A stretch of 64,000 bases of DNA from Rickettsia typhi (GCA_945876965.1 CAMCQG010000001.1:11138-75137); one strand, 5' to 3'; shown: positions 686 through 24,406, numbered from the stretch's first letter. The notes: generated by a model from the letters alone, not told the origin. Translations and numbers: made by a program.

Positions 686-1742
686 CTTCAATAATAGGTT
701 TTGTAATAAATATAATTTTTTCACCAATTTTTACAGTTGAAGCAAGTACTTTATCGGTTGTTTGTGCCCAGCAAAAATTTTCACCATAATTATTTTCTAT
801 TATCGTGCCAAGTTTTATTTTATTAATTGATAATTCTTGTTCATTTGTTAATGGATTTGTTTCATAGATCTTGCGTTCTAAAATAACTTCATCACCGGGA
901 TTAATGCCATCATTTGATCCAAAACTTATTTTAAATAATGTAGGCTCATCTTCTTTATAATCAGATCTAGCAATAATATGCCCTATCGCAGGAATATACG
1001 ACGATATTTTATCCACAGAATTTTGAATCGCAATAATAATAGCTTTTTTCATCATAATTGGATCGTAATCTTTTGCTTTATTCATACCATTTAGCTCTCC
1101 GGATTCACTATCTTCAATTATGCCAGATAATGGAATTTTTGCAACTGATTCTGCGGTTGGCATTTTAATAACAGAAAGTGAGCCAGTAAATGCGACATTA
1201 TAATAATATTTACCAGAAATTGGATTCTGACTATTATCAAAATATATTCCTCTGCCTTTTGTTGCAATCGCAGCACCTACCATAACACCAATTTTTGCCG
1301 CAGAATAAGCCATTTTAGCGGCAGATCTATCGTCATATTCGCTAGAAAAAATAAGGCTATCCATTTTTATTAAAAACACATAATCTGCATCTTTATTTCC
1401 AATTACACTAGTTCCATTTTTTAATTCAGATAAAATAAGCTCTTCTTTAATATTTTTTAAAACTCCGCGATCTAAAATATCAGCTGTTTTTATTTTTTGT
1501 AATATATTTTCTAAGCTAGATGATGCAATTTGTTTTTGATTAAAATTTGCTATATTTACATTTGTCTGATCATCGGTTACAATTACAACTCTTACCCTCT
1601 CTAATAATTCATTTTTTGTTGGAAATGGCTCAACTTTATCAACAATTGTTGGCGTATAAAGTGCAAATTGTTTTATTTTGTTTCCATTGCACGACATTAA
1701 TAATATGCAAACAAATAAATAAGATAATAATTTCATATTCAT
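675..1742 (-). CDS. putative lipoprotein, function unknown
   Basis: 355-aa ORF. The N-terminus MNMKLLSYLFVCILLMSCNG looks like a signal peptide with a lipobox Cys. I recognised no catalytic motif. Confidence 0.5.
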   Translation of the reverse strand: MNMKLLSYLFVCILLMSCNGNKIKQFALYTPTIVDKVEPFPTKNELLERVRVVIVTDDQTNVNIANFNQKQIASSSLENILQKIKTADILDRGVLKNIKEELILSELKNGTSVIGNKDADYVFLIKMDSLIFSSEYDDRSAAKMAYSAAKIGVMVGAAIATKGRGIYFDNSQNPISGKYYYNVAFTGSLSVIKMPTAESVAKIPLSGIIEDSESGELNGMNKAKDYDPIMMKKAIIIAIQNSVDKISSYIPAIGHIIARSDYKEDEPTLFKISFGSNDGINPGDEVILERKIYETNPLTNEQELSINKIKLGTIIENNYGENFCWAQTTDKVLASTVKIGEKIIFITKPIIEDEE

Positions 1743-2344
1743 TCAAAAATTTTTAACAAATATTTTCTTTGTATTTCAACAAAAAAGGCATCATAAATTG
1801 CAAAAAATTGTTTTTGTGCCGTTTCCAAATCATCATTCATAATTATACAATCATAATCTTTTGCATTTTGAATTTCATAGAATGCTCGCTCATTTCTCTC
1901 TTTTATGTTATCAGCCGAATCTCCACGAAATTCTATTCTATTACATAATGCACCTATTGATGGCGGTAAAATAAAAATTGTTAAAACATTTGCTTTTCCT
2001 TTAAAAAAATCCTTAATTTTATGCATTCCGTTGCTATCAACATTAAAAATTAAATTATGTTGTGCAAGCTGTGCTTCAACCAATAATGATTGAGTGCCGT
2101 ATTTGTTTCCATAAATTTCTACCGCTTCCAAAAGCTGATTTTTTGCCATCATATCATCGTATTGTTCGGTTGTCACAAAATTATAATGCTGACCATTAAT
2201 TTCATAATCCCTTGGCAATCTTGTGGTTACAGAAACTGGATGACTAAAATTTTTATGTTCTTCTAAAAATCTACTACAAATTGTTGTCTTTCCTACCCCC
2301 GATGGACCAGAAACAATTAAAACAAATTTTTCTGAAATCATCAT
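1739..2344 (-). CDS. gmk: guanylate kinase
   Basis: P-loop GPSGVGKTT, TTRLPRDYEINGQHYNFV and a length of about 200 aa are typical of Gmk. It overlaps the downstream ORF by 4 nt. Confidence 0.9.
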   Translation of the reverse strand: MMISEKFVLIVSGPSGVGKTTICSRFLEEHKNFSHPVSVTTRLPRDYEINGQHYNFVTTEQYDDMMAKNQLLEAVEIYGNKYGTQSLLVEAQLAQHNLIFNVDSNGMHKIKDFFKGKANVLTIFILPPSIGALCNRIEFRGDSADNIKERNERAFYEIQNAKDYDCIIMNDDLETAQKQFFAIYDAFFVEIQRKYLLKIFE

Positions 2345-2350
2345 ATAATG

Positions 2351-2575
2351 TTATTGTAAGCATTTTTTTACAATTATAGTCAAGCGATCTTGGTATTTTT
2401 TAGATAAAACACCATTATTTTTTTTAACATCTACTTCCATATCTTTTATTTCTGCTTTTGTAAATTCTGTTTTCATTTCATTAGCCAAACAGCTTGGATC
2501 AATTGTTATATTCTTTGCATAGCAATTTGTTGAAAAGAACAACAATAAAGAATATAAAAGCAAGTATCTTTTCAT
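2351..2575 (-). CDS. small secreted protein, unknown function
   Basis: Internal start MKRYLLLYSLLLFFSTNCYAKN gives a signal peptide. The longer track ORF (to 2638) would run through the tRNA gene, so I trimmed it. Confidence 0.35.
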   Translation of the reverse strand: MKRYLLLYSLLLFFSTNCYAKNITIDPSCLANEMKTEFTKAEIKDMEVDVKKNNGVLSKKYQDRLTIIVKKCLQ

Positions 2576-2593
2576 ATTATAAAAAAATAAAAT

Positions 2594-2668
2594 TGGAGCG
2601 GGTGAAGGGACTCGAACCCACGACCCTAACCTTGGCAAGGTTATGCTCTACCACTGAGCTACACCCGC
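2594..2668 (-). tRNA. tRNA-Gly (anticodon GCC), 3' CCA encoded
   Basis: The reverse complement is GCGGGTGTAGCTCAGTGGTAGAGCATAACCTTGCCAAGGTTAGGGTCGTGGGTTCGAGTCCCTTCACCCGCTCCA. It folds into a cloverleaf with a 7-bp acceptor stem, a GCTC/GAGC D stem, a TAACC/GGTTA anticodon stem with loop TTGCCAA, and a TTCGAGT T loop. There is one U-U mismatch in the T stem. Confidence 0.9.
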
Positions 2669-2893
2669 TAACTAATATACACTAAAACATTATAATTATA
2701 ATATTCAACTTTTTTTTTAAAATTTTATCACTAAATAAATATTCAAAATATCTCTGTAATAAACAAGTTATCAATTTATTTCTTTATGGATATTTTGATA
2801 AAAAATATTTTTAATTTTATAAAAAAATTCAAGTTGTTTTTTAGAAAACATAATAAATAAAATTATAAATTATAAAATAGAAATTATTAAGAT

Positions 2894-3631
2894 ATGAAAA
2901 AAAACTTAATACAAACAATTATTTGGGATAAATATTTTGGAATAGATTTGCTTTCTGGGTCATTAACAACAGAAATTATTGCTGAAAAAAAAATAATCCC
3001 TGAGATAAAAAAAAATATTGAAAAAACTGATATTGATTTATCTAATGTAGAAAATTTAGATAACTTATACGACATAATAAATAAATTTGATGGATGTCAA
3101 AGTTTAAAATCTCAAAATAGCAAAACAGTTATTTATGATGGCGTAAAAACTGCCAAAATTATGTTAATTGGCGAGGCACCCGGCGAAGAAGAAGAAACAC
3201 AAGGTGTCCCATTTTGTGGGCAAAGCGGACAATTGCTTGATAAAGTTTTGGCAACAATAAATATTGAAAGAAAAACTAACCTATATATAACAAATTCAGT
3301 TTTTTGGAGACCGCCTGCAAATCGTAAGCCTACAACCGCCGAAATTGAAATTTGTAGGCCATTTTTAGAAAAGCAAATAGATTTAATAAAACCAAATTTG
3401 ATAATTCTGTGCGGTGCAACACCAGTATCTTCATTGATAAAATCAAAGGAATCATTAGGGGATTTGCGTCAAAAAATTATTGATTATACAACATTAAATG
3501 GAACAAAAACACAATGTGTCGCAATTTATCATCCAGCATTTTTGCTTAGAAACCCAATAGCAAAAAAATCTATGTGGTTTGATATGCTATTTATAAAAGA
3601 CCTGCTATTTGCTCAGCCGAATAACAAATAA
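2894..3631 (+). CDS. uracil-DNA glycosylase, family 4
   Basis: GEAPGEEEETQGVPFCGQSGQLL (the GEAPG...PF-G-x-x-G motif) and the C-terminal HPAFLLRNP motif. The exact start is uncertain. Confidence 0.8.
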   Translation: MKKNLIQTIIWDKYFGIDLLSGSLTTEIIAEKKIIPEIKKNIEKTDIDLSNVENLDNLYDIINKFDGCQSLKSQNSKTVIYDGVKTAKIMLIGEAPGEEEETQGVPFCGQSGQLLDKVLATINIERKTNLYITNSVFWRPPANRKPTTAEIEICRPFLEKQIDLIKPNLIILCGATPVSSLIKSKESLGDLRQKIIDYTTLNGTKTQCVAIYHPAFLLRNPIAKKSMWFDMLFIKDLLFAQPNNK

Positions 3632-4646: not shown

Positions 4647-6116
4647 TCATAAAGATGTTATAGTTATATCGGTGCTATTTTCTCTTTGTAAAAATTTTTC
4701 TACTGCATTACCAGAAAAACCTGCCCTTCTCTCGCTTAGCTGTTTTTTCTTACAACAACATTTACTTTGCCTACAAGCTAAGCATAAACCAAGCATTGCA
4801 AGAGTTAGCGTGGCGATAGGAATCCTGGCCCAAAGAGGTAAAGGATTCATTTTAAATCTTGGTTCTTGTTTGTGCGATATTTTTTCATTGCTCAAAACTA
4901 CATCATCTGAAGCTAAATTTTTGTCAACAGAATGTGCATTGGGTTTAAGCTTTGATTCTTTTGCATATGGTAAATTGCTATACATAATATCTGAATGTAA
5001 ATTATTGCAATTATCAGTATTAAAAATCCTACCAGAACTATCTTTTTTTTCTTCTTCTTGGGTCTTATAAGTATCAAAAATGCATCCTCTATATTGATTT
5101 CGAGCAAGCGTTTTAATTCCATTAATTTGCTCATATCTAGCGTTATCTTCTTTTGATCCATTTTTTAAATATTCTATATTCTCTGTAAAATATTTTGGAT
5201 CAATTGGATATGCATAATCTTGTTTATAATACTTAAGGCAGTTAATTATATTGATTTTATCGCCAGTTCCTTCGTATTGCAATACTCCGTCTGCTACGGC
5301 TTTAAAAAGTAAATATTTTGTCAAATCATTTTCTTTAACAAAATTTATCAGTTTTTGGTTGTGCGGAGGTTTTGCATATTTATTTTGTATATCCGTAATA
5401 TCAAAAAATGTCAATCCTTTGTGCAAAGCATCTTCATATTCGTTATATATTGATTGAAGTTTTTGTACCTGATTTTGTGGTATATTTTGTATAATATTAT
5501 TGCTTGGATCTAGTACATATGCAATTGTTGGGCCGTTAACTGTATTAAAATCTTCATGGCAATACGACATAATAGAATTGCATTCGTAATCTTTTCCCCA
5601 AGACTCACTAGTTATTGTGCAGTCTTTTAGACTATTTTCTATTCCATTAAAATTATGAGCAAAACCTAGCCAATGAAGAACTTCGTGCATTTCAAAATTA
5701 TTAGCATGGGTTATGTTGTTGTTTGTATTATAGGTGATAGTGCCATCCCCTATATTCATATCTCCATAATATATTGCATTTTTACCTTTATATGGAATTA
5801 GCTTAGGATCATTTATAAAATCAATTTTTATCGCATTAAGATCTTGATTTTGATTTAATACAATCCCACCATTTGTGATTTTTTCCAATGTTGTTATTGT
5901 TTTAGCTAAATTATCCTTAGAATTTTTAACTAAATTATCATTTTCTATCGTATTATCTTTAAAGGTTGCATTGCCAATTTTTATTGGAATATTGCCGTTT
6001 TTATCAAATTTTATTTGTTTGAAGGTCGCCAACTTAAATAATAAATCTAAATAATTATCATCCGCCTTATTAAGAATATCCAACCTACTATCCCCCTCTT
6101 CTATTTTACCGCCCAT
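4647..6116 (-). CDS. metzincin-type zinc metalloprotease with a C-terminal membrane anchor
   Basis: HEVLHWLGFAH matches HExxHxxGxxH, with a downstream Met-turn-like SIMSY. No N-terminal signal peptide is seen. A hydrophobic segment PLPLWARIPIATLTLAMLGLCLA followed by CRQSKCCCKKK lies near the C-terminus. Confidence 0.6.
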   Translation of the reverse strand: MGGKIEEGDSRLDILNKADDNYLDLLFKLATFKQIKFDKNGNIPIKIGNATFKDNTIENDNLVKNSKDNLAKTITTLEKITNGGIVLNQNQDLNAIKIDFINDPKLIPYKGKNAIYYGDMNIGDGTITYNTNNNITHANNFEMHEVLHWLGFAHNFNGIENSLKDCTITSESWGKDYECNSIMSYCHEDFNTVNGPTIAYVLDPSNNIIQNIPQNQVQKLQSIYNEYEDALHKGLTFFDITDIQNKYAKPPHNQKLINFVKENDLTKYLLFKAVADGVLQYEGTGDKINIINCLKYYKQDYAYPIDPKYFTENIEYLKNGSKEDNARYEQINGIKTLARNQYRGCIFDTYKTQEEEKKDSSGRIFNTDNCNNLHSDIMYSNLPYAKESKLKPNAHSVDKNLASDDVVLSNEKISHKQEPRFKMNPLPLWARIPIATLTLAMLGLCLACRQSKCCCKKKQLSERRAGFSGNAVEKFLQRENSTDITITSL

Positions 6117-6145
6117 CCAATCGGATAATAATTTTGCATCTGCTT

Positions 6146-6811
6146 CTATTGAGCTATTTGTTTCTGATGCATACAGATAATTAGATCTAATATGCTGTAG
6201 ATTTGCATTGCCTGAATTTTTTTTAAAAACTCTAAATCGGCGCCTTCAAATTTATCTGTATTATTGGTTTTTTTATCGCCACAAACAATATTCAAATTAT
6301 TTTGCTGACCATTCAATGTGCTGTTATACAGATTTTGTCCGTTAAAATTTCCATTTGATATCCAATCGTTATAGACCTGAGAACCAAGACTGTTGTTGTG
6401 TGTGGCAACTGTTGTGGTGGATTGTGCTTTGGTTGGTATAGGGTTGCAATTTGCAGTTGCAAGAACACAAGATAAAATTAACATCATTATAATAATTTTA
6501 TTAGGAGCGACACCGCTATGATTTGTTTTAAAATATTCAGATAAACCTTGTATTTCGGTATTTTTATTATTAGCTGGGTTAATATTATAAACATTATGCA
6601 ATTCATTTTCACTCATTTGCAACATTGCTTTTGTAATAGAATCTATTGTTTTTAAGCTACCATCTGCATGAACTGCTTCAACCCATTTTTGAAATTTATC
6701 TTCATGCTTGGCTGTATTTAATTCAATTTTTTTCTGTATATCTCGTCTCTGTTTGTCGAATGTTTTGATTCGTGGAAAAGATTTTAAAAAATTATTATGA
6801 TTGTTTGGCAT
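6146..6811 (-). CDS. hypothetical membrane protein with an N/Q/T-rich C-terminal part
   Basis: 221-aa ORF with a central hydrophobic stretch KIIIMMLILSCVLATANC. No motif recognised. Confidence 0.35.
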   Translation of the reverse strand: MPNNHNNFLKSFPRIKTFDKQRRDIQKKIELNTAKHEDKFQKWVEAVHADGSLKTIDSITKAMLQMSENELHNVYNINPANNKNTEIQGLSEYFKTNHSGVAPNKIIIMMLILSCVLATANCNPIPTKAQSTTTVATHNNSLGSQVYNDWISNGNFNGQNLYNSTLNGQQNNLNIVCGDKKTNNTDKFEGADLEFLKKIQAMQIYSILDLIICMHQKQIAQ

Positions 6812-6860
6812 AGATTGGTAAATTAATATAATAACATAGTTTTAAATTTTACAAGGCAAT

Positions 6861-6960
6861 CAAGTTATAGAACCTATAACATACTGCATAACACCGCCAG
6901 CCTTATAATATTCTGCCTCATAAAATGTGTCAATTCTGCATTTTAAGTCAATGTTTTTGA
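6861..6960 (-). pseudogene. remnant of the acnA 3' end (orphan C-terminal fragment)
   Basis: The reverse complement reads ...VKNIDLKCRIDTFYEAEYYKAGGVMQYVIGSIT-stop. This is near-identical to the C-terminus of the intact acnA at 8057-8160, but there is no acnA body upstream. Confidence 0.75.
6876..6960. repeat. direct repeat, left copy (acnA 3'-end sequence)
   Basis: 85 bp matching 8076-8160 with 4 mismatches counted by eye. The offset is exactly 1200 bp. Confidence 0.9.
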
Positions 6961-7038
6961 CAAAATTATCATCTTGCATTGATTCCCTGATAGAAATATT
7001 TTTTCTAAGGATTAGTGTTTTGTGTATCGCTATCATAA

Positions 7039-8073
7039 TTAATGTGTTAAAATTTTGTTTAATTGTTTTACAAAATCTGTCGTATCTAAAAAATAATTTG
7101 GATATGCTTTTCTCAATTTTTTAATATCATCAATTTTAATTAAAACAATATCATTTTGAACTCCATTTAAAATACCTTGCTCGTGCATTTCATATGCTGT
7201 ATTTGCATCATCTTCTTTTTCAATTAATATATATCTTGTTTGATTATTTGCTATATCTATTATTAATAAAACAAATTTTAACTTTTTTAATTTATTTTCT
7301 TTAATCGTTTTACCGAGTTCACTAACAAATGCTATCTTTTCTTTTACTTTCAGCTCCTTTTCTTTTTTGATTATCAATCCCCTAATTTCTGCCTCTAATA
7401 AATTTTTATGAGCCTCTAAAACAGGTTGTTTTTCTTGCAACGCAAATGCTGAACTTACGAGTGCAAAAAAATCTAACCATTCTGGATCTTTGTTATCAAA
7501 TTTTAATGATTTGTTTAGTATTGTATCAACGGTTTCAACGGCTGTTGCCCAAATATGTTGCAATTCTGTTCTAAATTGAATTTCAATTTGTAGACCATCA
7601 TATAGTGGACTAGGATATTGTGTTTTATAAACTAAATGTATTCCACGATAACCTGTATCCTTTGGTTTTGTAATGTAATCAAGTTGTCTTTTTAAAATTT
7701 GTTTTGTTTTTTTATTTGCAAAAATACTAACCAAATATCTAACTTCTTCTACATTTTTTACAATTATTCTAAGTCCACCAATATCTTGCATATCAGATAA
7801 CTTGCCTTGGTATCTTACTGATGAAATTTTATTAAGAATTGTTGGCATTCTTTTTAATCTTTGAGTAACAATATAATCTTGGTTGATTCCTTTGTTTTCT
7901 TTTATACAACGATTTAAAGATACTTTAAATCGATTAATAACATGCGTATGCAATCTTCTCCAAGAGGCAATTTTATTAAAAGCATCTTTATTATTGTAAT
8001 CTGCTTTTAAAATTTGCCCAGCTTCGTTCAAATCTTTATTTGATATTCTTACCATATCAATCAATTTTACCAT
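7039..8073 (-). CDS. stand-alone RelA/SpoT-domain protein (small alarmone synthetase / toxSAS-like) with an uncharacterised ~130-aa C-terminal domain
   Basis: DIGGLRIIV...KPKDTGYRGIHLVY...LQIEIQFRTELQHIWATAVE is the nucleotidyltransferase core of (p)ppGpp-synthetase-fold proteins. No hydrolase (HD) domain and no TGS/ACT domains are present. The ATG at 8073 overlaps the acnA stop by 17 nt. Confidence 0.8.
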   Translation of the reverse strand: MVKLIDMVRISNKDLNEAGQILKADYNNKDAFNKIASWRRLHTHVINRFKVSLNRCIKENKGINQDYIVTQRLKRMPTILNKISSVRYQGKLSDMQDIGGLRIIVKNVEEVRYLVSIFANKKTKQILKRQLDYITKPKDTGYRGIHLVYKTQYPSPLYDGLQIEIQFRTELQHIWATAVETVDTILNKSLKFDNKDPEWLDFFALVSSAFALQEKQPVLEAHKNLLEAEIRGLIIKKEKELKVKEKIAFVSELGKTIKENKLKKLKFVLLIIDIANNQTRYILIEKEDDANTAYEMHEQGILNGVQNDIVLIKIDDIKKLRKAYPNYFLDTTDFVKQLNKILTH

Positions 8074-10660
8074 TCATAACATACTGCATAACACCGCCGG
8101 CTTTATAATATTCTGCCTCATAAAATGTGTCAATTCTGCATTTTAAATCAATGTTTTTAACAGAATCGTCTGCATAAATAATCGTGCAATTAACTGTTTT
8201 ATTTGTTAATATATCATCAATTTTTGGTATTGCAAAACTAAATTTTTCATCACCTTTTAAATTGAGGGTTTTGCGAGTATCTCCGTTTGTAAATTCAAAT
8301 GGTAAAACGCCCATTCCAACCAAATTTGAACGATGAATCCTCTCAAAAGATTCAACAATAACTGCTTTAACACCCAAAAGCATCTGACCTTTTGCCGCCC
8401 AATCACGAGACGATCCACTGCCATATTCTTTGCCTGCCACAATAACGAGAGGTGTTTTATCGGCAATATATCTCATTGCAGTATCATAGATAGAATCTGT
8501 TGTTCCGCTAGGTAAATGAACGGCTAATGGCCCATCAAGACTTATCATTTCGTTTTTTATGCGAACATTTGCAAAAGTACCTCTCATCATAACTTCGTGA
8601 TGACCTCGTCTTGTGCCATAACTATTAAAATCTTTTTTGGTAATTCCAAAGGAATTTAAATATTTTGCAGCTGGTGAATTTTCGGCAATGTTTCCGGCCG
8701 GAGAAATATGATCGGTGGTTATTGAATCGCCAAGCATTGCCAAGCATCTTGCATTTTCGATTTTGACTTCGGTAGTTTTTTTGATATTTTCAAAATAGGG
8801 CGGATTGGCAATATACGAACTTTTATCCCATTCGTAGTTTTTGCCAGTTGGTGCTTCGATTTTTTTCCATTCATCAGATCCAGATAAATCAGCATATTTT
8901 ATAATAAATGTTTCGCGTTTGACCGATTTTGCAATTGTATCAGCAATTTCTTGGTTGCTTGGCCATAAATCTTTTAAAAATATACCACCACCAAAATCTG
9001 TTTTTGTGATATCAAGCCTTACAGAGCCTAGCAAACTATAAGCCACAACAAGGGGAGGTGATGCCAAATAATTTGATTTAACTAGTGCATGAATTCTGCC
9101 TTCAAAATTTCGATTACCAGATAAAACGCCTGCAACATTCAAGTTTTTTGATTTAATATCGGCTTCAATATCCGCATTTAAAGGTCCAGAATTGCCAATA
9201 CAAGTCATGCAACCATATCCTGCAACAAAAAACCCAAGTTGGTTTAAATATTCTTGCAAACCAGAATCAATTAAATATTGCCCAACAACAGTAGACCCGG
9301 GCGATAAAGTTGTTTTGACAAATGGTTTAACTTTTAAACCCATTTCAACTGCTTTTTTTGCAAGCAATCCAGCCCCAATTATAACCGACGGATTAGATGT
9401 GTTCGTGCAAGAAGTAATCGCTGCAATTACCACGGATCCATCTTGTAAAAGATTATTATTGGATATTTCAGTTTTGCATTCTGCATTAAAATTGTCGGCA
9501 ACATCTTTTAGAACAATTCTATCTTGTGGGCGTTTTGGACCAGCAACTGATGCCTCTATTGTAGATAAATCAAGACTCATAATATCGGTATAAACAGCAA
9601 TAATATCGTCGTTACGCCACATTTGATTTGCTTTTGCATACCCTTCAACGGTTGCAATTTGCTCATCGCTTCTCCCCGTTAAATGAAGATATTTTAATAC
9701 TTCGTCGTCAATAGGAAACAAACCACAAGTAGCTCCATATTCAGGTGCCATATTAGCAATTGTAGCCCTGTCTGCAAGACTAAGATTATCTAATCCGTTG
9801 CCAAAAAATTCAACAAATTTGGCTACAACTCCTTTTTTACGAAGCATTTGGGTAATTGTCAAAACAACATCTGTTGCCGTTATTCCTTCTTTTGTTTTAC
9901 CTGTCAATTTGACACCAATAATTTCTGGCTGAACCAAACTAATTGCCTGACCTAAACTAACGGCTTCAGCTTCAATTCCACCCACTCCCCAGCCCAAAAC
10001 TCCAAGTCCGTTTATCATAACGGTATGAGAATCGGTGCCAACAACGGTATCAGGATACAATATATTATCTTTTTCAAAAACAACTTTTGCTAAATATTCT
10101 AAATTAATTTGATGACAAATTCCAACTTCAGGCGGAACAATAGTCATATTATTAAAAGATTTTTGTGCCCATTTAAATAATCTATAACGCTCTTTATTAC
10201 GACCAATTTCTAATTCGCTATTTTTATGCAAAGCATCAGAAGTTCCATAATAATCAGCCTGAATTGAATGATCAACAACCAAATCAATTGGCACAAGTGG
10301 ATTTACTTTATCTGCATTACCACCATTTTTAACAACAAAATCACGCATTGCAGCTAAATCTACAATTGCTGGAATTCCAGTAAAATCTTGCATTAAAACC
10401 CTAGATGGATAATATGAAAGCTCAACATCGCCTTTGCCTTTATTTGACACCCATTTAACAAAATTTTCAATTGTTTGCACCGTTATATCTTTGCCATCTT
10501 CAAATCGTAGTAAATTTTCTAATAAAATCTTCATTCCAAATGGAAATTTTGCAATATCTACACCTAATTTTTGTGCAGCTTTTTCAATATTATAAAAACT
10601 ATATTCTTTGCCATTAATAACTGTTTTATCTAACGAATTTAACGAATTTAAACTTGCCAT
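8057..10660 (-). CDS. acnA: aconitate hydratase A
   Basis: 867-aa ORF with hallmark aconitase blocks: GTDSHT, ITSCTNTSNP, CMTCIGNSG and the swivel-domain GSSRDWAAKG. Confidence 0.95.
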   Translation of the reverse strand: MASLNSLNSLDKTVINGKEYSFYNIEKAAQKLGVDIAKFPFGMKILLENLLRFEDGKDITVQTIENFVKWVSNKGKGDVELSYYPSRVLMQDFTGIPAIVDLAAMRDFVVKNGGNADKVNPLVPIDLVVDHSIQADYYGTSDALHKNSELEIGRNKERYRLFKWAQKSFNNMTIVPPEVGICHQINLEYLAKVVFEKDNILYPDTVVGTDSHTVMINGLGVLGWGVGGIEAEAVSLGQAISLVQPEIIGVKLTGKTKEGITATDVVLTITQMLRKKGVVAKFVEFFGNGLDNLSLADRATIANMAPEYGATCGLFPIDDEVLKYLHLTGRSDEQIATVEGYAKANQMWRNDDIIAVYTDIMSLDLSTIEASVAGPKRPQDRIVLKDVADNFNAECKTEISNNNLLQDGSVVIAAITSCTNTSNPSVIIGAGLLAKKAVEMGLKVKPFVKTTLSPGSTVVGQYLIDSGLQEYLNQLGFFVAGYGCMTCIGNSGPLNADIEADIKSKNLNVAGVLSGNRNFEGRIHALVKSNYLASPPLVVAYSLLGSVRLDITKTDFGGGIFLKDLWPSNQEIADTIAKSVKRETFIIKYADLSGSDEWKKIEAPTGKNYEWDKSSYIANPPYFENIKKTTEVKIENARCLAMLGDSITTDHISPAGNIAENSPAAKYLNSFGITKKDFNSYGTRRGHHEVMMRGTFANVRIKNEMISLDGPLAVHLPSGTTDSIYDTAMRYIADKTPLVIVAGKEYGSGSSRDWAAKGQMLLGVKAVIVESFERIHRSNLVGMGVLPFEFTNGDTRKTLNLKGDEKFSFAIPKIDDILTNKTVNCTIIYADDSVKNIDLKCRIDTFYEAEYYKAGGVMQYVMNGKID
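8076..8160. repeat. direct repeat, right copy (the authentic 3' end of acnA)
   Basis: Matches 6876-6960; see the left copy. Confidence 0.9.
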
Positions 10661-10677
10661 ATTAATACTAAATAAAA

Positions 10678-12034: not shown

Positions 12035-13645
12035 TCATTTTTTAACAACTCCGCCGTTCACTTTAATTTCAAAAATCTCAACCGCCTCAATTCCATCAAC
12101 GGTTATTGCCTTGATTGCAATTTTATGCAAGCCTTCGGCAAATGTCCATTCTTCGTTTGGTTTTCCGTTTAAAATTTCGGCTTCAAAACCTTTGTTCTCG
12201 TCAAAATCAATGTCATATTGCCAAACTTCAATTTGTTCGGCGGCCGTGCAATCAAACCTAACAATTCTCTCGGTTTCTTTTTTGCCTTGCCCCACAAATG
12301 CTACTTCAACCCCAATTTTTGGCTTTTTACCAATTGGCACAATTGTGGCAACTTCTACCAGTTCTATAATTATTTTTTCTTCTAATTTTAGCCTTGCAAC
12401 CTCCTCTTTTGCACCCTTGCCAAACGAAAATGCAATTATGCTGCCAATTGATTTTTTGTCTGCAATTTGCTTGGCTAATTTGTCTTTTAACTTTGCCGTA
12501 GATTTGTAATATCGTTGAAAATCATAAACCGTTTCGTCAACCACATTTCGCCCGATATTCTCGCTCCGTTTAACTTGAATTGGCTTGTGTTCGCTGTCCC
12601 TTCCGTCAATTCCAAAGTCGCCAATTTGCCTGTCGTTGCCTTCGCCGCCAAATTTTTCAACGATGAACTTTTCAAAAGCTAGGTCTTTCATTCCAAATTT
12701 TTTGTCAAACAAATAGTCATAATCGTATTTGTGAGTTTTAACCGCAAATCCATCAAAATGTGCCTTATATTCCAAATCGCAACCGATTCGCTCCAGCCTG
12801 CCTTGTGTAACCTTTGTGGCAATAATCGATTGATCAATGCCTATAAATTGCCGTTTCAACTTTGCCGCCACCGCCACCGTTGTTCCCCCGCCCACAAACG
12901 GATCCAGCACGATGTCTCCTTCGTTCGACGATGCTTTTATTATTCGTTCAAGTAATGCCTCTGGCTTTTGCGTTGGGTAACCTATTCTTTCTTTTGCAGA
13001 TGATTGTATTGAATTAATATCAATCCACCAATCTTCTGGTATCTTTCCTTCATCTATATAATATCTATAATATTTATAATTTCCATTTTTATCTTTACTG
13101 CCTTGTTTTTCAACATATTCTCTTCCATTTTCATCTACACCCATTTTACCACCATAATTATTTTTAGAAGAAGATTTATGAGTAGTCATTGATATAGATA
13201 CATCTTCGGCATTAAAATTCCATTTATTACTTTTTACATAAAAGAAAATTGAATCGTGCTTTCTAGCATAATTATTTTTTGATTTACCGCCAGTACTATA
13301 ACACCAAACAATCTCATTCCTAAAATTCTTATCCCCAAAGATTGGATCCAAAATTTGCACCCTAATATAGGCATCTGCGTGCCAGTCGCAATGCAGGTAA
13401 ATTGAGCCTGTTTTTTTAAGTATTCGGTGAATTTCTTCAACTCGTTCTCTAAGCCAGCCGATATAATGGCTCATTCCACCGCTCCACCTATCTTCAAAGC
13501 TGCGTTTTTCACCGGCATCGCCCCAAATAACCTCGTAGTTTCGGTTGCTAAAAAACGGCGGATCAAGATAAATCAAATCTACCGATTCACTTGGCAAACC
13601 TTTTAAAATCTCTAAACAATCCCCGTGATATAGTGTATTTTGCAT
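12035..13645 (-). CDS. beta-class N6-adenine/N4-cytosine DNA methyltransferase fused to an Mrr-like PD-(D/E)xK nuclease domain plus an extra C-terminal beta-rich domain
   Basis: Motif IV LIYLDPPFF lies near the N-terminus and motif I VLDPFVGGGTTVAVA near residue 250, which is the beta-class order. Next comes GDFGIDGRDSEHKPIQVKRSENIGRNVVDE, matching the Mrr catalytic pattern D...GIDG...QxK. About 100 further residues are unassigned. Confidence 0.75.
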   Translation of the reverse strand: MQNTLYHGDCLEILKGLPSESVDLIYLDPPFFSNRNYEVIWGDAGEKRSFEDRWSGGMSHYIGWLRERVEEIHRILKKTGSIYLHCDWHADAYIRVQILDPIFGDKNFRNEIVWCYSTGGKSKNNYARKHDSIFFYVKSNKWNFNAEDVSISMTTHKSSSKNNYGGKMGVDENGREYVEKQGSKDKNGNYKYYRYYIDEGKIPEDWWIDINSIQSSAKERIGYPTQKPEALLERIIKASSNEGDIVLDPFVGGGTTVAVAAKLKRQFIGIDQSIIATKVTQGRLERIGCDLEYKAHFDGFAVKTHKYDYDYLFDKKFGMKDLAFEKFIVEKFGGEGNDRQIGDFGIDGRDSEHKPIQVKRSENIGRNVVDETVYDFQRYYKSTAKLKDKLAKQIADKKSIGSIIAFSFGKGAKEEVARLKLEEKIIIELVEVATIVPIGKKPKIGVEVAFVGQGKKETERIVRFDCTAAEQIEVWQYDIDFDENKGFEAEILNGKPNEEWTFAEGLHKIAIKAITVDGIEAVEIFEIKVNGGVVKK

Positions 13646-14867: not shown

Positions 14868-15647
14868 TTATAAATAAGGGTTTGTTATTTTTTCACCGTT
14901 CACATCAACAATGTCAGGTAATTTTGTCTGTTGCAAATGCACTTCGTTAATACGAGAAATACCAATTTTTGCATCATTATTTGTATATTCTGTTTCGTAA
15001 TATTCGGCAAGAGCCTGCCTAATTTCAAACGGAACTTTATCGGTTGTAGGTGGCATAACAAAACGAATTTTTGTTTTTAACCCACATTCTTTAATTGTTT
15101 TAATTACGGGGATAAAATCTGTATCGCCAGAACAAATAATAACTCTACTTGGTTTGTATAAAAAACAATCTCTAATTATAGCACAAGCAAGATTTGTATC
15201 CGTTTGTTTTTCGTCATATTCAAACCATTTTTGTGCTTTGCAAGATGGGCATTCAAGACCCTGATGATAACATTTTTTGCAATTAATATATCTTTTTTTA
15301 AACTTACCTTCAATTATTTTTGCTCCCAAAAAATTTTGCACTTTTGAATAATTATCATGCCTTATTAATTTTGAACCATCATCAAAAATATGTTCTGGTC
15401 TAGAAGTAAAAAAATTTACATCTTGTAATACTTCGTTTGGAGCCAAAAAACAAGACATTAATGCGGGCAAAGAAACCCATTTTAAATGAGGATTTTTAAG
15501 TTTTTGAACCTGATGATATAAATTAAAACCATCAATATAAGCAAAAACACGGGCTAAACCAAATGAATCAACCGAATTGTTCTCAAATGGACGGCCACCC
15601 GTCGAGCGTTTCGTATTGTCGTTGATATTATCATTCATAATTGTCAA
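14868..15647 (-). CDS. NYN (LabA-like, PIN-fold) domain protein with an inserted Cys4 zinc ribbon
   Basis: AYIDGFNLYHQ (N-terminal acidic motif), EKQTDTNLA, ICSGDTDFIPVIKTIKECG (the GDxDF motif), and the insertion CKKCYHQGLECPSCK. Confidence 0.7.
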   Translation of the reverse strand: MTIMNDNINDNTKRSTGGRPFENNSVDSFGLARVFAYIDGFNLYHQVQKLKNPHLKWVSLPALMSCFLAPNEVLQDVNFFTSRPEHIFDDGSKLIRHDNYSKVQNFLGAKIIEGKFKKRYINCKKCYHQGLECPSCKAQKWFEYDEKQTDTNLACAIIRDCFLYKPSRVIICSGDTDFIPVIKTIKECGLKTKIRFVMPPTTDKVPFEIRQALAEYYETEYTNNDAKIGISRINEVHLQQTKLPDIVDVNGEKITNPYL

Positions 15648-19643: not shown

Positions 19644-20429
19644 TTATAAATTAACAACTATAATATTCTGCAAATAATTTGCCAACTGATGGCGATGGCA
19701 ACATTTTGCGTCAGCTTCAAAACAAGTGATTGCGACAAATTGGTTTTTGTTTAAAATATCAAGCAAGTTATCAATATATTTTTGTTTTGTAGGCAAATTT
19801 TGTTTATAATCAGTAAAAATATCATCTTTGGCATTTTTGTTTGAAATAATTCCAAAGAGTGGTAAATCTAGTATTGTTTTTGCTTTTTTTATTTCTTCCC
19901 GTTTTTCATTTTCAATCCCAAGTTCCGGAATATGAATGTAATTTATTCCTGATTTTTCAAGACAATATTTAAACTCATTTTTGCTAAAACCAAATTTATT
20001 TGAATAAGCATTTCGCCTTATATCAACAAGTGCTTTTATTTGTTTAACAAGCAATTTGTTTATGTAGGTATCAATTGAAATACCTTCGTATCCAATGGTA
20101 AAAAGTATCTGATTTTCTTCTTTATTTATTATCAAATTTGTTTTTTTAAAAACATCATTAATCATATTTTTTAATTTTTCAACAGCTGTTTTTTCTTCAA
20201 AAGTCAAATCTACTATATATCGTTTTTTACTTAAATAATCTTTATTTATAAATATTTTTATATCATTTTCAAGTTCAAATGAAAAATCATCAACAAAATC
20301 GTAATTTATATAAAAAATTTGCTTAAAAAGCGCAATTTTTTCTTGAATTTGTTGCAATTCAATATCAAGTTCCTGTGCAATTGCTAATACTATTTTGTGC
20401 TTGTTTTGCATAATCAATAGAGTTTTCAA
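19644..20429 (-). CDS. DUF488-domain protein with an N-terminal extension
   Basis: FTIGYEGISIDTYINKLLVKQIKALVDIRRNAYSNKFGFSK... and the C-terminal CFEADAKCCHRHQLANYL match the DUF488 (YeaO-like) pattern. Confidence 0.7.
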   Translation of the reverse strand: MKTLLIMQNKHKIVLAIAQELDIELQQIQEKIALFKQIFYINYDFVDDFSFELENDIKIFINKDYLSKKRYIVDLTFEEKTAVEKLKNMINDVFKKTNLIINKEENQILFTIGYEGISIDTYINKLLVKQIKALVDIRRNAYSNKFGFSKNEFKYCLEKSGINYIHIPELGIENEKREEIKKAKTILDLPLFGIISNKNAKDDIFTDYKQNLPTKQKYIDNLLDILNKNQFVAITCFEADAKCCHRHQLANYLQNIIVVNL

Positions 20430-20739
20430 TTAAAGTAAAATTATTTTTTTAATTTACAACTAAAAAGGTATATAATTTAGATTTTGGTAAACAAAATTAT
20501 AAAAAAAATATGTTTTTGCTATTAAATAAAAATATTTGTTATTATTAATAAATATAATACTGTGTATTAAATTTATTAGCTATATTATGTAAATCTTAAA
20601 TAATAATATTAAATCTCTCGCAGATGATTTTTTTGATCTTTTAGAGTCTAAATTCCTCAATATCTTTGAACAAGAATCGAATACAGGTGATGAACAGTCT
20701 ATTTCAAACTTTTTTTTATATGGTTATTATGCGGTTACT

Positions 20740-21084
20740 TTGAAAGATAATGAGTATCAGTATTATATGGAAAATCAAATCGACGATGATTTGTTATCAA
20801 AAAAAGATAAAGAGAAATTTTTAGCTTTTAATTCTATTTTAAAAACAGAAAGACTTGATTTCTTAGATGATAATGAGTTATATTGCGAACTTATTAAAGG
20901 TCAGATATGTATTCCGCCAAAAAATGATAAAGAAGAAAAAGATGCAGTCAGGCAAATACAGAATATCTTGGTTCCCAAATATATTTCTATGATAAAAAAA
21001 TTAGATATTGGCCTAAAATATTTAAAACATCACAAAATAGAAAAAAGTATTAATGCGGTAACGCAATATATAGGACCATCTTAG
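20740..21084 (+). CDS. hypothetical protein (first ORF of the insert)
   Basis: The track ORF uses a TTG start. The frame is actually open from 20593 without an ATG, so the true start is unclear. No motif recognised. Confidence 0.35.
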   Translation: MKDNEYQYYMENQIDDDLLSKKDKEKFLAFNSILKTERLDFLDDNELYCELIKGQICIPPKNDKEEKDAVRQIQNILVPKYISMIKKLDIGLKYLKHHKIEKSINAVTQYIGPS

Positions 21085-21372
21085 ATATGTAAATATTACG
21101 ATATATAAAAATTTCTTGCACATTAAAAATTATACCATAAATAACAATATATAGAAATCTTTAATTTAAGAATGTATGAATACAACAGGCCCCAATAATA
21201 AAAGATCTGCCCCCGCTTATAATGGCCCTAATGATACGACTGCAAAAAAAATTAAGACTGGACTAACAAAAACAAAAAAATAAACAATCTTTTTGACAAA
21301 AAATGGAACCCTGGCGATTTCACAAACTCACCTAAATTAGCTAATGGTTATCCTACAACAAGATCAGCACAT

Positions 21373-21837
21373 TTGCTTGCTACAAGCCCAGATTCAATGG
21401 TGGTATACAAAGAAAATGGAGATAAAATATATTCACCATTTATTTTGCTATTAAACAGAACAGTAGAAGATATAATGCTTGATAATAAATTGCTTTGGAA
21501 AGTAGAGAATAAAGATATAGCAAATGATATTAAGGCATCGGTAACAAAAGAAATATATAAAAAAATTGAACTAGAAAACAATACACCCAATGATAGACTT
21601 TTTTTATCAGCATCTGTAATAAATAAAACTCCTAATAATTTTAAGGGAGCCTTTACTATGATAGCAAATATTGGTCAAAGTGGATACATTGTTGGTGAAG
21701 GAGTTACTACGGAAGATGGTATGACAAATAACAAAAATACAATACAATTAAGTGTTCCAAAGCTTACGCAAGAAGAAGCTCAAGCAGAATTTATAGCTTT
21801 TACCAAAGCCAGAATAGATGCCTTAGAAAAATTATAA
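21373..21837 (+). CDS. hypothetical protein, paralogue of the 61189-61761 product; the 5' part is possibly frameshifted
   Basis: By-eye alignment to the 61189-61761 protein gives NGDKIYSPF/EGNKIFAPF, PNDRLFLSASVINK/PDRTFLSSALISK and TEDGMTNN/PTDGMTSN. The frame is open upstream to 21256. A short ATG ORF (21176-21283) lies in the other frame. Confidence 0.5.
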   Translation: MLATSPDSMVVYKENGDKIYSPFILLLNRTVEDIMLDNKLLWKVENKDIANDIKASVTKEIYKKIELENNTPNDRLFLSASVINKTPNNFKGAFTMIANIGQSGYIVGEGVTTEDGMTNNKNTIQLSVPKLTQEEAQAEFIAFTKARIDALEKL

Positions 21838-21858
21838 CATACGCAAAAAAAATATTTT

Positions 21859-22098
21859 ATGACATCTTTTGAAGAAAAAAACAATTATAATAGTAGATTG
21901 CCACTAAGGATTAGTAGCCTAAGAAACAAATTGCCGACTTTTGAAGAAGGTATCAATAATTCTGTTGCTATTTTGTATAATGGTCAAGATGGCGACATAC
22001 AAAAAGAAACAAAAAAGATACAAATATTAAATAGTGATATTGATAATATTGTTAGCGGATTGGGAGAAGAACACAAAAAAAATATAATGAACATATAG
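21859..22098 (+). CDS. small hypothetical protein
   Basis: 79-aa ORF, 21 nt after the previous ORF and on the same strand. Confidence 0.35.
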   Translation: MTSFEEKNNYNSRLPLRISSLRNKLPTFEEGINNSVAILYNGQDGDIQKETKKIQILNSDIDNIVSGLGEEHKKNIMNI

Positions 22099-22142
22099 CG
22101 CAATATAATCAAATTTTTTTAACTAAATACAAAAACAGAGAT

Positions 22143-22931
22143 ATGTTGCCAATGTCTACATCTTATAGCGAGAATCAGGATAAAAAAATATCAAATTACT
22201 TTGAATCTATGGCATTTAGTGAAGAAGGAGTACCAAACTCGGCTTCTGATACCGCCTTTGCAAGATATGGAAAAACATATGATGATGATAAATTTTATTG
22301 TTTTGTTCGCACCATAGGTGTCGCACAAGATACCGATAGAAAATTAAAAGATACTTCTGATGCTAGTGCCAATAATCGTAATGAATTAGATTTACACCCA
22401 AGCATTGATGTCATTGATGCTGTTGGAGAAAAAGGTTTTATAAAAGAAATATTAGTTAGTAGCTCGATAAAACATGATAAAAATGCGACTGACGAAGAGA
22501 TGGCAATAACAGAATATAATGCATTACGCGGCAGTTCGCCACGAAATAATGTAGGTAATACAAAGAAGGAGAATCTATTAGCAACAATGATGCATTTTGG
22601 CGAACAAGCTTTTCCCGATGGAGTTAGGGTTTATAATCAAGAATTAAATAAAATGATTAAAATAGGAGAGTATGATAAAATTAAGAAGGATATAGAACAT
22701 ATTGTTTTCAATGGCAGAGTTGATGGTGCTATACAAAGAGTTAATAATATGATTGATAAGTTAGAAACTCAAAAAGCAGATGCATCAAAAATAATCGCTT
22801 TTTTATCAAAAACAGAAGAAGAGAAAAAAGACATAATTATGGATGCTGTTGAAAAGGTGAAAAAAGAAAAAGATATCACAAAATCTCACTTTCCAACAAG
22901 ACCAAAGGAAGCATGGGGTCCCAAATTATGA
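22143..22931 (+). CDS. hypothetical protein, paralogue of part of the 59691-61223 product
   Basis: LATMMHFGEQAFPDGVRVYN aligns with LPMLCFLGQDAFKDGVFVYD of the 510-aa protein. No known domain recognised. Confidence 0.5.
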   Translation: MLPMSTSYSENQDKKISNYFESMAFSEEGVPNSASDTAFARYGKTYDDDKFYCFVRTIGVAQDTDRKLKDTSDASANNRNELDLHPSIDVIDAVGEKGFIKEILVSSSIKHDKNATDEEMAITEYNALRGSSPRNNVGNTKKENLLATMMHFGEQAFPDGVRVYNQELNKMIKIGEYDKIKKDIEHIVFNGRVDGAIQRVNNMIDKLETQKADASKIIAFLSKTEEEKKDIIMDAVEKVKKEKDITKSHFPTRPKEAWGPKL

Positions 22932-22943
22932 TAGCTATAAAAG

Positions 22944-23133
22944 ATGAACATATTTTATTCCTAATTTTTCAAGACAATATTTAAACTCATTTTTGCTAAA
23001 AATAAATTTATTTTAATAAGCATTTTGTCTTATATCAAAAAGTGTTTTAGGAAATTTTTTCTTGAATTTGTCGCAATTCAATATCAAGTTCCTGTGCAAT
23101 TGCTAATACTATTTTGTGCTTGTTTTGTATAAT
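22944..23133 (-). pseudogene. internally deleted remnant of the DUF488 gene 5' half
   Basis: 22944-23049 matches 19931-20037 and 23053-23133 matches 20334-20414, in the same orientation. About 295 bp of the gene is missing between the two blocks. The start codon is mutated (cat to tat on the + strand). Confidence 0.8.
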
Positions 23134-23185
23134 AAAAAGATTTTTATATAATATTAGCATATAAAATATTATATAAAAAATATAA

Positions 23186-24406
23186 TTAATAAAATAATTC
23201 TTCAAAAAAAGATGATATTTTATATAATTTATTCAAGAAAAAATTATTGTGCTCACTTAAATGTTTTTGTTTATATTTTTTTAATAAATAGCCGCCAATG
23301 CCAATAACCGTTGTATAATTTGTTGATTTTAATATATTTATTTGCCAATTTTGATTATTATGAATAATCCAATCCTGATTTTTTGCTATGCCAATTTGAC
23401 AATGTTTTTTAAGAATAAGCTGTGCAATTTCTTCAATATTTGACATTTTTGATACACCGCCAGTCAAAATTATATTTTGTGCGTTTGCTAAATGTGATAT
23501 TTCTATAAAAATCTCTTTAATATTTTTATGTATAACCTGATAAACATCGCTAAGTCTAATAATTTGCTGACTAGAAAGGCTTGAAAAATTATCTTTTGAT
23601 AAAACACAATCATCATTTGTGCCAATATTACTAGCCAATATTTTGATATTTTCGGCATCTTTACGAGATAATCCAAATATTTTTATTATATCGTTTGTTA
23701 TTTTTAGTCCTCCAATCGCCAAATGATTAACATTTTTCAAATATCCATTTTCAATAATGGCAACCGATGTATCACAGTTTCCAATTGATATTACGGCAGT
23801 AGAGCCAATTCTGTGCTCAGGTTTTATTGTTGCCAAACACGCTGCCTGAGATGATGAAACAAATGATATTATTTCTAATTTATTTTTAGCCACATATCTA
23901 TTTAAATTGTTAATAATACTACTATTTGCATAAACTAATAAATAATCAGCAACAATAGATGATGCTTGCAAATTTATTGGATCTGTAACATTTATTTTAT
24001 CGTCTAGTGCATAATAGTTATTAAATAAATCGACAATAATATCATTATTTAACATATTTTTTCTGTCAGAACAAGATTTTTCAATTTTTGTGATATGACT
24101 TTGATTTATTGCAATTGGATATTCAAATTTAAAACCACGCTGAATATTCTTAAATTTTAAATAATTATTGCCAACAGACATTGCAATATTATCTACATGC
24201 AACCCTTGTTTTTCTTCTATATTATATATTATTTCAAGCAATGCACCCTCTTCTATATTGCCATCTTGACTTATTAATGCCGAAACACCCTTATGTTCCA
24301 TTGCCAAAAGTTCTATTTTTTGATTTGCATAGAACATTCTTACAACTAATATTGTTATGTTATAAGAACCAATATCGATTAATCCAACAATATCTCCGTC
24401 GTGCAT
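23186..24406 (-). CDS. ftsA: cell division protein FtsA-like (actin-fold ATPase)
   Basis: VGLIDIGSYNITILV and TAVISIGNCDTSVAIIENG phosphate-binding motifs, ILTGGVSKM, and a length of 406 aa. It is not flanked by ftsQ/ftsZ here. Confidence 0.65.
   Translation of the reverse strand: MHDGDIVGLIDIGSYNITILVVRMFYANQKIELLAMEHKGVSALISQDGNIEEGALLEIIYNIEEKQGLHVDNIAMSVGNNYLKFKNIQRGFKFEYPIAINQSHITKIEKSCSDRKNMLNNDIIVDLFNNYYALDDKINVTDPINLQASSIVADYLLVYANSSIINNLNRYVAKNKLEIISFVSSSQAACLATIKPEHRIGSTAVISIGNCDTSVAIIENGYLKNVNHLAIGGLKITNDIIKIFGLSRKDAENIKILASNIGTNDDCVLSKDNFSSLSSQQIIRLSDVYQVIHKNIKEIFIEISHLANAQNIILTGGVSKMSNIEEIAQLILKKHCQIGIAKNQDWIIHNNQNWQINILKSTNYTTVIGIGGYLLKKYKQKHLSEHNNFFLNKLYKISSFFEELFY

Follow-up and report, generated by a model that had tools for sequence, protein, structure and literature searches.

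How can a RelA/SpoT-type gene come to lie between two copies of the 3′ end of acnA, the gene for aconitate hydratase A, with the aconitase itself kept at full length? The question is posed by a stretch of 64,000 nucleotides (nt) from contig CAMCQG010000001.1 (GCA_945876965.1, positions 11138 to 75137), referred to below in its full length as the window, for which a preliminary description had reported 85-bp direct repeats of the acnA end and had suggested a Campbell-type or duplicative insertion. Comparison with related strains leads us to favor, with some reserve, a reading of the repeat-bounded 1200-bp unit as an accessory defense islet that is present in some and absent from other strains of one species-level population. 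Its cargo gene, here called capRel, encodes by homology a fused toxin-antitoxin of the CapRel type.

A repeat search recovered the offset of exactly 1200 nt that had been described and gave the repeat in full as 91 nt with 95% identity between its copies, one of only three families of direct repeats of at least 90 nt in the window. The gene content is also as first described: the right copy is the true end of acnA, the left copy lies in an acnA-like open frame, and the RelA/SpoT open reading frame (ORF) stands between them. No difference separates the two copies over their central 44 nt, and in 100 dinucleotide-preserving shuffles a second copy of this block never arose, with 3 mismatches tolerated. 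Of the five mismatches, four (positions 6899, 6902, 6947, and 6959) fall on third codon positions of acnA without changing the amino acid, exactly as had been counted for the 85 bp, and the fifth (6963) is non-synonymous. Outside the 91 nt, the left and right loci are unrelated on both flanks, and immediately downstream the right copy reads MNGKID-stop and the left copy IGSIT-stop. A weaker similarity that had been thought to run on to about position 7000 could not be told from chance when set against shuffles (P of ∼0.14 to 0.3 for protein and ∼0.27 for DNA). Over the core encoding CRIDT...YV, the copies agree at 61 of 63 nt, as opposed to 52 of 63 nt between the window acnA and that of a relative with a 74% identical protein (L038); hence, the identity of the copies goes beyond what amino acid conservation and AT-biased codon use would account for. 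In one further strain (L003), the copy-to-copy identity extends ∼12 nt beyond the repeat.

The empty-site comparison that the preliminary description had proposed was run and was positive. Four contigs without capRel were read, namely, L085 (GCA_965045975.1), L086 (GCA_964949135.1), L087 (JGI 3300008264), and L088 (GCA_031546665.1), all with ∼95% DNA identity to the window strain. Their acnA genes end in a native five-residue tail (IGSIT, AGYIA, or MGSIT) of the same types as that of the orphan fragment in the window, and the downstream gene begins 49 nt after acnA (226 nt in L086), neither the RelA/SpoT gene nor a second repeat copy intervening. This downstream gene is a single ORF of 654 to 729 amino acids (aa), homologous to the window gene that lies beyond the fragment. 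When the window is aligned with L085, the alignment runs over 9.3 kb at ∼95% identity and is interrupted by a gap of 1200 bp. The strains differ by an insertion/deletion polymorphism that has the repeat at its borders and whose insert supplies a replacement for the acnA end. A scan of GTDB genomes with acnA gave L038, only 74% identical, as the closest species; it was rejected as an empty site on account of its different tail and different downstream gene.

What the insertion has done to the aconitase can be read from the tails. Searching with the full AcnA sequence returned a cluster of variants, at least 90% mutually identical, with 8 full-length members. A five-residue tail is found in seven of these (IGSIT in three, MGSIT in two, AGYIA and MGSIN in one each), and the MNGKID end occurs in the window's own protein alone. 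To the 866-aa AcnA of a cassette-free strain (P0133), the window AcnA is 97% identical. The acnA body is native, and its last six codons and stop come from the insert, a claim made before and borne out by the tails of the cassette-free strains. It follows from the empty-site comparison that the AcnA end of the orphan fragment is the native acnA end, displaced. The enzyme is kept full length, since the cassette carries a spare aconitase end. Both the acnA stop and the capRel start are insert-borne; the stop codon TGA is followed by a single nucleotide and then by the probable capRel start (TGA-T-ATG).

The filled arrangement recurs elsewhere. Single contigs from three other samples, built by different assemblers, carry the acnA end, the RelA/SpoT gene, and the 58-aa fragment in this order (L002, L003, and L084), and the L002 contig runs on into the downstream gene; five shorter pieces (L001, P0004, P0125, P0129, and P0131) show part of the same arrangement. 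Each of the filled contigs has sequence differences of its own. In contexts unrelated to acnA, which the preliminary description had named as a possible refutation of its reading, the repeat was not found. The repeat breaks short-read assemblies, and several related contigs stop inside it.

How the cassette is distributed over flanking haplotypes bears on its history. It is found with at least two flank haplotypes, each of which occurs in empty form as well: over 66 nt, the window agrees with the empty contigs L087 and L088 in its native tail and intergenic region, and an AGY-type tail together with an 8-bp deletion between the genes is common to the filled L002 and the empty L086. In the acnA-attached repeat copy, the 3′ two-thirds are invariant in four filled strains and the 5′ third varies as native alleles do, with the boundary between invariant and host-like single-nucleotide polymorphisms (SNPs) lying in a different place in different strains. 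The SNP pattern would fit a host 5′ part joined to an insert 3′ part on the acnA side, and an insert 5′ part joined to a host 3′ part on the fragment side. An assignment argued from L085, with a host-derived left copy and an element-derived right copy, was withdrawn, as the L087 and L088 alleles are closer to the right copy. The patterns show that the cassette was gained, lost, or exchanged by recombination more than once; they do not tell the route.

Turning to the cargo, the RelA/SpoT ORF spans positions 7039 to 8073 in full, with an in-frame ATG at 8073 that would give 344 aa and a 17-nt overlap with acnA. The second ATG, at 8055, is the probable start: it is used by the gene callers on related contigs, and within the 344-aa ORF the profile alignments set in at residue 8. 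The protein matches PF04607 (RelA/SpoT synthetase, toxSYNTH; E value of 1.2e-17, residues 71 to 177), the PADLOC model PDC-S33 over its full length (E value of 3e-99), filed by PADLOC as a single-gene system, and phrog_4773 (E value of 1.6e-82). With phmmer, residues 28 to 339 align with residues 36 to 367 of the Salmonella CapRel in Protein Data Bank entries 7ZTB and 9ERV (E value of 9.5e-35). An AlphaFold (AF2) model with a predicted local distance difference test score (pLDDT) of 87.5 returned the same two entries first in Foldseek, with a template modeling (TM) score of 0.71 over ∼352 columns and thus the whole length; RelQ and RelP, which are small alarmone synthetases, rank next with matches to the N-terminal half only.

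Residues of known importance are also conserved. In CapRel SJ46, the G-loop residue Y155 and the ATP-coordinating R79 and R116 have been named as functional (PMC9712102); their aligned counterparts in the 344-aa ORF are Y142, R72, and R102, respectively. None of these catalytic columns (R66, R96, and Y136 when counted over 338 aa) varies in 49 homologues. A YXXY motif plugs the active site of the fused CapRel, which is self-inhibited through it (PMC9712102); here, too, such a motif is found, and its first tyrosine and its proline are nearly invariant in the 49 homologues. In CapRel SJ46, specificity is set by the pseudo-zinc-finger domain (pseudo-ZFD), to which the phage capsid protein binds (PMC9712102). 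Homology shows the window protein to belong with the CapRel-type fused toxin-antitoxins, and by analogy with characterized relatives its N-terminal toxSAS part would pyrophosphorylate tRNA, with the C-terminal pseudo-ZFD predicted to hold the toxin shut until a phage protein binds. The G+C content of capRel is 26.2%, compared with 30.1% for the window and 34.9% for acnA. Exact-protein look-ups for the window acnA and capRel products found no record.

Comparison of five strain alleles of capRel, the window's and those from L002, L003, L084, and P0004, revealed an unevenly conserved protein. Its N-terminal part occurs as two alleles with 86% identity and its C-terminal part as four, among which identity over residues 213 to 300 is only 26 to 37%. 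Residues 1 to 212 show 86 to 100% amino acid identity between strain alleles, and the DNA alignment breaks at the same point. L084 carries a recombinant, with the common N-terminal allele joined to the C-terminal allele of the window. To judge from these alleles, the putative sensor is exchanged as a module between strains, for which the natural population itself provides the evidence.

Taken together, the comparisons show that the islet entered the 3′ end of acnA with its own 91-nt acnA segment, a new six-codon tail, and a stop, leaving the native 3′ end behind as an orphan fragment and AcnA at full length. Filled and empty alleles as well as capRel modules would then have been swapped between strains by ordinary homologous recombination, and the 91-nt repeats would also permit precise loss. 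The founding insertion may have taken one of three routes: integration by a site-specific recombinase supplied in trans, a Campbell event with one crossover, or duplicative repair. Of the Campbell-type or duplicative insertion first suggested, the insertion as such is supported by the empty sites; the data cannot tell a Campbell event from a site-specific or a one-off duplicative one, and an acnA origin is not demonstrable for the part of the fragment that lies upstream of the repeat. The architecture is that of integrative elements which replace the 3′ end of their target gene, reduced to one cargo gene without a recombinase. As had been stated before, integrase and transposase genes are absent: no recombinase was found in the unit, which holds only capRel and the 58-aa ORF, or in any of the tested ORFs at 0.7 to 35 kb. 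A transposon or insertion sequence was rejected, given that there is no transposase, that there are no terminal inverted repeats, and that the duplication measures 91 nt instead of 2 to 14 bp.

Several points weigh against our preferred reading of the unit as a defense islet. Neither a circular form nor a donor element nor a cognate integrase was found. A one-off insertion followed by recombination in the population explains the same data without any mobility of the element. The repeat SNPs single out no robust host-derived copy, with the left copy host-like relative to L085 and the right copy closer to L087 and L088. Furthermore, CapRel activity and an anti-phage function are ascribed to the protein by homology, and the promoter discussed below is a consensus match only, its −10 hexamer being degraded to TATTAC in the 74% identical L038. 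Lastly, the bacterium looks host-associated (leucine-rich repeat [LRR]-NEL effector, VirB9), and no phage of the lineage is known here.

Might the unit also be moving on its own? In an alternative that we regard as possible, if rather improbable, RecA would loop out a 1200-bp circle that, once transferred, enters the acnA of another strain by a Campbell crossover with the repeats regenerated, making the unit an actively mobile mini-cassette that dispenses with an integrase. The 91 nt at 95% identity with 44 identical nt would be enough for RecA, coding sequence would make up nearly the entire circle (a 59-codon acnA-like ORF, 1 nt, capRel, and 2 nt; that is, all but 3 nt), and no recombinase lies nearby; the occurrence of the cassette on at least two haplotypes that also exist empty, as well as the shifting boundary between invariant and host-like SNPs, would fit as well. 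The same haplotypes are explained equally well by double-crossover exchange of the whole locus, however, and a 1.2-kb circle without replication or transfer functions would need a vehicle. Neither the circle nor an excision junction was observed. A 1216-bp Logan contig (L001) with both ends inside the repeat was rejected as evidence of a circle, since a plain k=31 unitig delimited by the exactly matching 44 nt would have these very ends. Two scans of JGI metagenomes and one of viral contigs turned up no copy in free or alternative form: a degenerate pattern of the 44-nt core gave 0 matches in the metagenomes, a weak design since assemblies break inside the repeat, a 29-nt pattern of the downstream flank likewise gave 0 matches, and so did the scan of viral contigs for the repeat core. 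With equal caution, the unit might be described as a minimal mobile defense cassette that has no recombinase of its own, is nearly all coding, and finds its target purely through ∼91 nt from the conserved end of a host gene, with a promoter in it; by RecA-dependent Campbell recombination it would hop between strains and keep AcnA, the cargo, and the downstream gene expressed.

Somewhat less probable again, in our estimation, is that the unit is what remains of a larger site-specific element, be it a prophage or one akin to the cis-mobilizable elements (CIMEs), for which the acnA 3′ end served as attB, with capRel as att-proximal cargo and the rest, integrase included, deleted. A replaced target-gene 3′ end together with a displaced pseudo-3′ end is a signature of such elements, as exemplified by e14 at icd, and integrase-less CIMEs down to 1.2 kb are documented. 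CapRel SJ46 is itself prophage-borne (PMC9712102). A single-protein scan of viral contigs with capRel gave no relatives; among CapRel relatives in IMG/VR, 245 stretches were confirmed in viral contigs, and in the 80 of these that we examined (L089 to L168), the locus lies ≤350 bp from a contig end in 11, compared with ∼3% expected. Yet none of these 80 viral loci is bracketed by direct repeats of >17 nt, for which reason bracketing repeats were also rejected as a general feature of CapRel genes, and the viral-contig scan for the repeat core was empty. A larger element or another cargo occupies the site in none of the ∼13 sampled strains. Nor was any integrative and conjugative element (ICE), integrative and mobilizable element (IME), or prophage found at acnA in ∼13 strain variants, viral contigs, and JGI metagenomes, with sampling of the lineage being thin. 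The repeats also enclose no remnant of a phage or ICE gene, and the deletion would need to have ended just 2 nt past the capRel stop.

The 58-aa ORF deserves separate attention, as it is open in all filled strains and its ATG lies 2 nt past the capRel stop. We consider it probably a by-product of the junction and not a gene. Its first 24 codons, encoded by the segment that arrived with the cassette, have no significant similarity to AcnA or to any of 1.84 billion protein representatives, and their candidacy as a diverged piece of acnA was dropped because the similarity was not significant against shuffles. Strain differences are nearly all non-synonymous in these 24 codons, and change is mostly synonymous in the 28-codon AcnA core that follows. 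This open frame, its position behind capRel, and the synonymous change in its core are what a working partner of CapRel would predict, be it a small antitoxin or regulator or a mimic of the AcnA C terminus, in a two-gene system. We hold this to be very unlikely, however: the empty-site comparison fully accounts for the native tail and the repeat copy, the 24 N-terminal codons change almost only non-synonymously, and the conserved core can be put down to the promoter-like site, to gene conversion, or simply to low divergence. Moreover, fused CapRel is self-inhibited via YXXY, which is present here, and PDC-S33 is a single-gene system. As to an assembly artifact, that is, a chimeric or collapsed join at the repeat as envisaged in the preliminary description, this is effectively refuted, although short-read assemblies do fragment at the repeats and several related contigs terminate there, since single contigs from three further assemblies (L002, L003, and L084) span the same order in other samples, with other assemblers, and with sequence differences of their own.

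A search with the 58-aa ORF returned 27 further short ORFs of 50 to 173 aa from other lineages (P0263 to P0289). The seven whose sequence was read all join an unrelated N terminus to an AcnA C terminus; P0265 has the CRIDT...YYQHG motif twice, and P0286 couples the N terminus of ribosomal protein L6 to the AcnA C terminus. These ORFs may represent other displaced acnA ends or debris from gene calling or assembly.

Returning to the preferred reading of the unit as a defense islet, the repeat might carry more than the end of a protein. A promoter-like site lies on the coding strand within the 44-nt identical block and hence in both copies (Table 1). In empty strains it would face the downstream gene, and in filled strains one site would face capRel with the other still facing the downstream gene. 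Expression of capRel may start from this site inside the repeat or stem from the acnA transcript; the stop-1 nt-start arrangement suggests cotranscription of capRel with acnA as well as coupled translation. We hypothesize that the promoter-like site is a functional reason to keep both copies intact at the nucleotide level.

Table 1. Features of the acnA–capRel locus, in window coordinates
Feature	Coordinates	Strand	Basis or remark
1200-bp insertion/deletion relative to cassette-free strains	6963..8162	none	Sole gap of ≥15 nt from acnA start to downstream gene in the L085 alignment; placement within the repeat arbitrary
acnA (aconitate hydratase A), 867 aa	8057..10660	-	Pfam Aconitase E 2e-157, Aconitase_C E 2e-39
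Right repeat copy, on acnA	8076..8166	-	Encodes ...VKNIDLKCRIDTFYEAEYYKAGGVMQYV; 3′ two-thirds (GAC...AAA GCC...CAG) the same in all four filled strains
Left repeat copy, inside displaced native acnA 3′ end	6876..6966	-	Variation of the 3′ part among filled strains resembles that of native alleles where the cassette is absent
Insert-supplied AcnA tail MNGKID plus stop	8057..8075	-	MNGKID present only alongside the cassette
Displaced native AcnA tail IGSIT plus stop	6860..6875	-	Same as working AcnA tail of cassette-free P0133, P0253, and P0258
capRel, fused toxSAS toxin-antitoxin (by homology), 338 aa from probable ATG at 8055	7039..8055	-	PF04607, PADLOC, phrog, PDB, and fold matches
YPNY, the YXXY auto-inhibition motif	7093..7104	-	AYPNYF aligns with AYPNYF of SJ46 (Y352/Y355)
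Hypervariable part of capRel, residues 213 to 300 of 338 aa, putative pseudo-ZFD sensor/antitoxin	7156..7419	-	Allele comparison
58-aa ORF: 24 codons plus AcnA C-terminal remnant	6860..7036	-	NCBIfam AcnA models weak (E 2e-6), far under cut-offs
70-nt segment arriving with the cassette, first 24 codons of the 58-aa ORF	6967..7036	-	Without counterpart in empty-site contigs
Sigma-70-like promoter TTGACA-17-TATTAT (11/12), right repeat copy	8105..8133	-	Consensus match only; ∼50 nt upstream of capRel ATG
Same promoter-like site in left repeat copy, toward downstream gene	6905..6933	-	Consensus match only; −35 is TTGATA in some strains
Downstream host gene, next after acnA in empty strains	4647..6811	-	In the window split by a frameshift into 221 + 489 aa

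The genes on either side of acnA show peculiarities of their own. In the window, the downstream gene is split at positions 6090 to 6175 into ORFs 6146 to 6811 and 4647 to 6116, and tblastn places the frame change near residue 197 to 199; a pseudogene or a sequencing error is possible. Its larger part contains an HExxHxxGxxH motif like that of metalloproteases. On the other side, the capRel-free L085 has a 2.2-kb insertion of its own just upstream of acnA (L085 positions 1383 to 3620, corresponding to window 10662 to 10669) with two repeat-rich genes of 141 and 555 aa, neither of which has a Pfam or PADLOC match; the insertion is not flanked by a direct repeat. With this upstream insertion, both sides of acnA are strain-variable.

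As for the bacterium itself, the G+C content of the window is 30% (30.1%), the closest GTDB species by AcnA is an alphaproteobacterial metagenome-assembled genome with 74% identity, and the closest named AcnA matches, at 56 to 59%, come from Wolbachia, Deianiraea, and a "Rickettsiales bacterium." It is an uncultured, probably host-associated alphaproteobacterium, this lifestyle being suggested by an effector of the LRR-NEL E3-ligase type and VirB9 in the window, and an anti-phage gene in such a bacterium is mildly unexpected. Elsewhere in the window, we noted an effector-like gene with LRR and NEL (novel E3 ligase) domains (24457 to 27000), VirB9/CagX, a component of type IV secretion (31353 to 32114), an N6/N4 DNA methyltransferase that is type II-like and adjoins adk (12035 to 13645), and an NYN-domain protein (14868 to 15647), suggesting some restriction-modification or defense content.

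A second duplicated gene fragment that brackets an insert lies at positions 19644 to 23205 of the window. Here, a DUF488 gene (19644 to 20429, minus strand) is accompanied by a degenerate partial duplicate at 22941 to 23156, which comprises 104 nt of the 5′ end of the gene at 90% identity and an internal 108 nt at 89% and falls partly within a 52-aa ORF beside ftsA. Between the two copies lie ∼2.5 kb of ORFs without a Pfam match on the other strand.

Natural strains thus show how one gene with a predicted anti-phage role can occupy the end of an essential metabolic gene and leave the latter unharmed. The apparent swap of the CapRel sensor module between strains lends population-level support to the arms-race picture that has come from laboratory work on CapRel SJ46. 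If movement without a dedicated recombinase were true, it would offer a very simple route for the spread of defense genes. Such cassettes would be easy to miss, because their repeats break short-read assemblies.

How does this locus compare with known systems? The closest parallel in layout is e14 or phage 21 at icd of Escherichia coli, where an element likewise sits in the 3′ end of a gene of the tricarboxylic acid cycle and supplies an alternative 3′ end with few, mostly conservative differences, which keeps the enzyme intact (PMC13626634), the native 3′ end being displaced to the far side as the short pseudogene icdC. When e14 is excised, the displaced icdC fragment recombines with icd to give a chimeric functional gene (PMC13626634). 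Of the e14-type features, the repeats at both ends (here 91 nt), the alternative 3′ end, and the unoccupied site are present, whereas an integrase and excisionase of its own are absent. The e14 element measures ∼15 kb, encodes these two enzymes, and undergoes SOS-induced excision; the unit described here has 1.2 kb, one gene, and no recombinase, and its excision was not observed.

In size, the unit is matched by the streptococcal CIMEs, which occupy the 3′ ends of rpmG, rpsI, and fda with lengths of 1.2 to 13 kb (PMC7563491). Common features are direct repeats of the att type within the 3′ end of a housekeeping gene, the lack of recombination and transfer genes, a size down to 1.2 kb, and adaptive cargo (PMC7563491). 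However, the CIMEs are deletion derivatives of ICEs or IMEs with common att sites and are moved by accretion, whereas no ICE, IME, or prophage was found at acnA here.

The cargo itself resembles CapRel SJ46 in its full-length homology (E value of 9.5e-35, TM score of 0.71), in the correspondence of R79, R116, and Y155 to R72, R102, and Y142, in its YPNY motif, and in having the pseudo-ZFD as its least conserved part. The two are only ∼28% identical, though, and CapRel SJ46 is carried by a prophage in enterobacteria, in contrast to the chromosomal, acnA-coupled gene of the window in an AT-rich, probably host-associated alphaproteobacterium.

Finally, integron cassettes come to mind, as they also consist of one compact ORF of ∼1 kb with a recombination site of ∼60 to 140 nt, have no recombinase of their own, and depend partly on expression from outside. 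Unlike these, the unit has no attC-like hairpin, no inverted repeats, no intI or attI, and no array; folding of both repeat copies as single-stranded DNA on both strands gave z-scores of −0.86 to +0.59, and no meaningful inverted repeats were detected, so that an attC-like structure was rejected on both grounds. Set beside these systems, the acnA–capRel unit is a known architecture in a minimal version without a recombinase.

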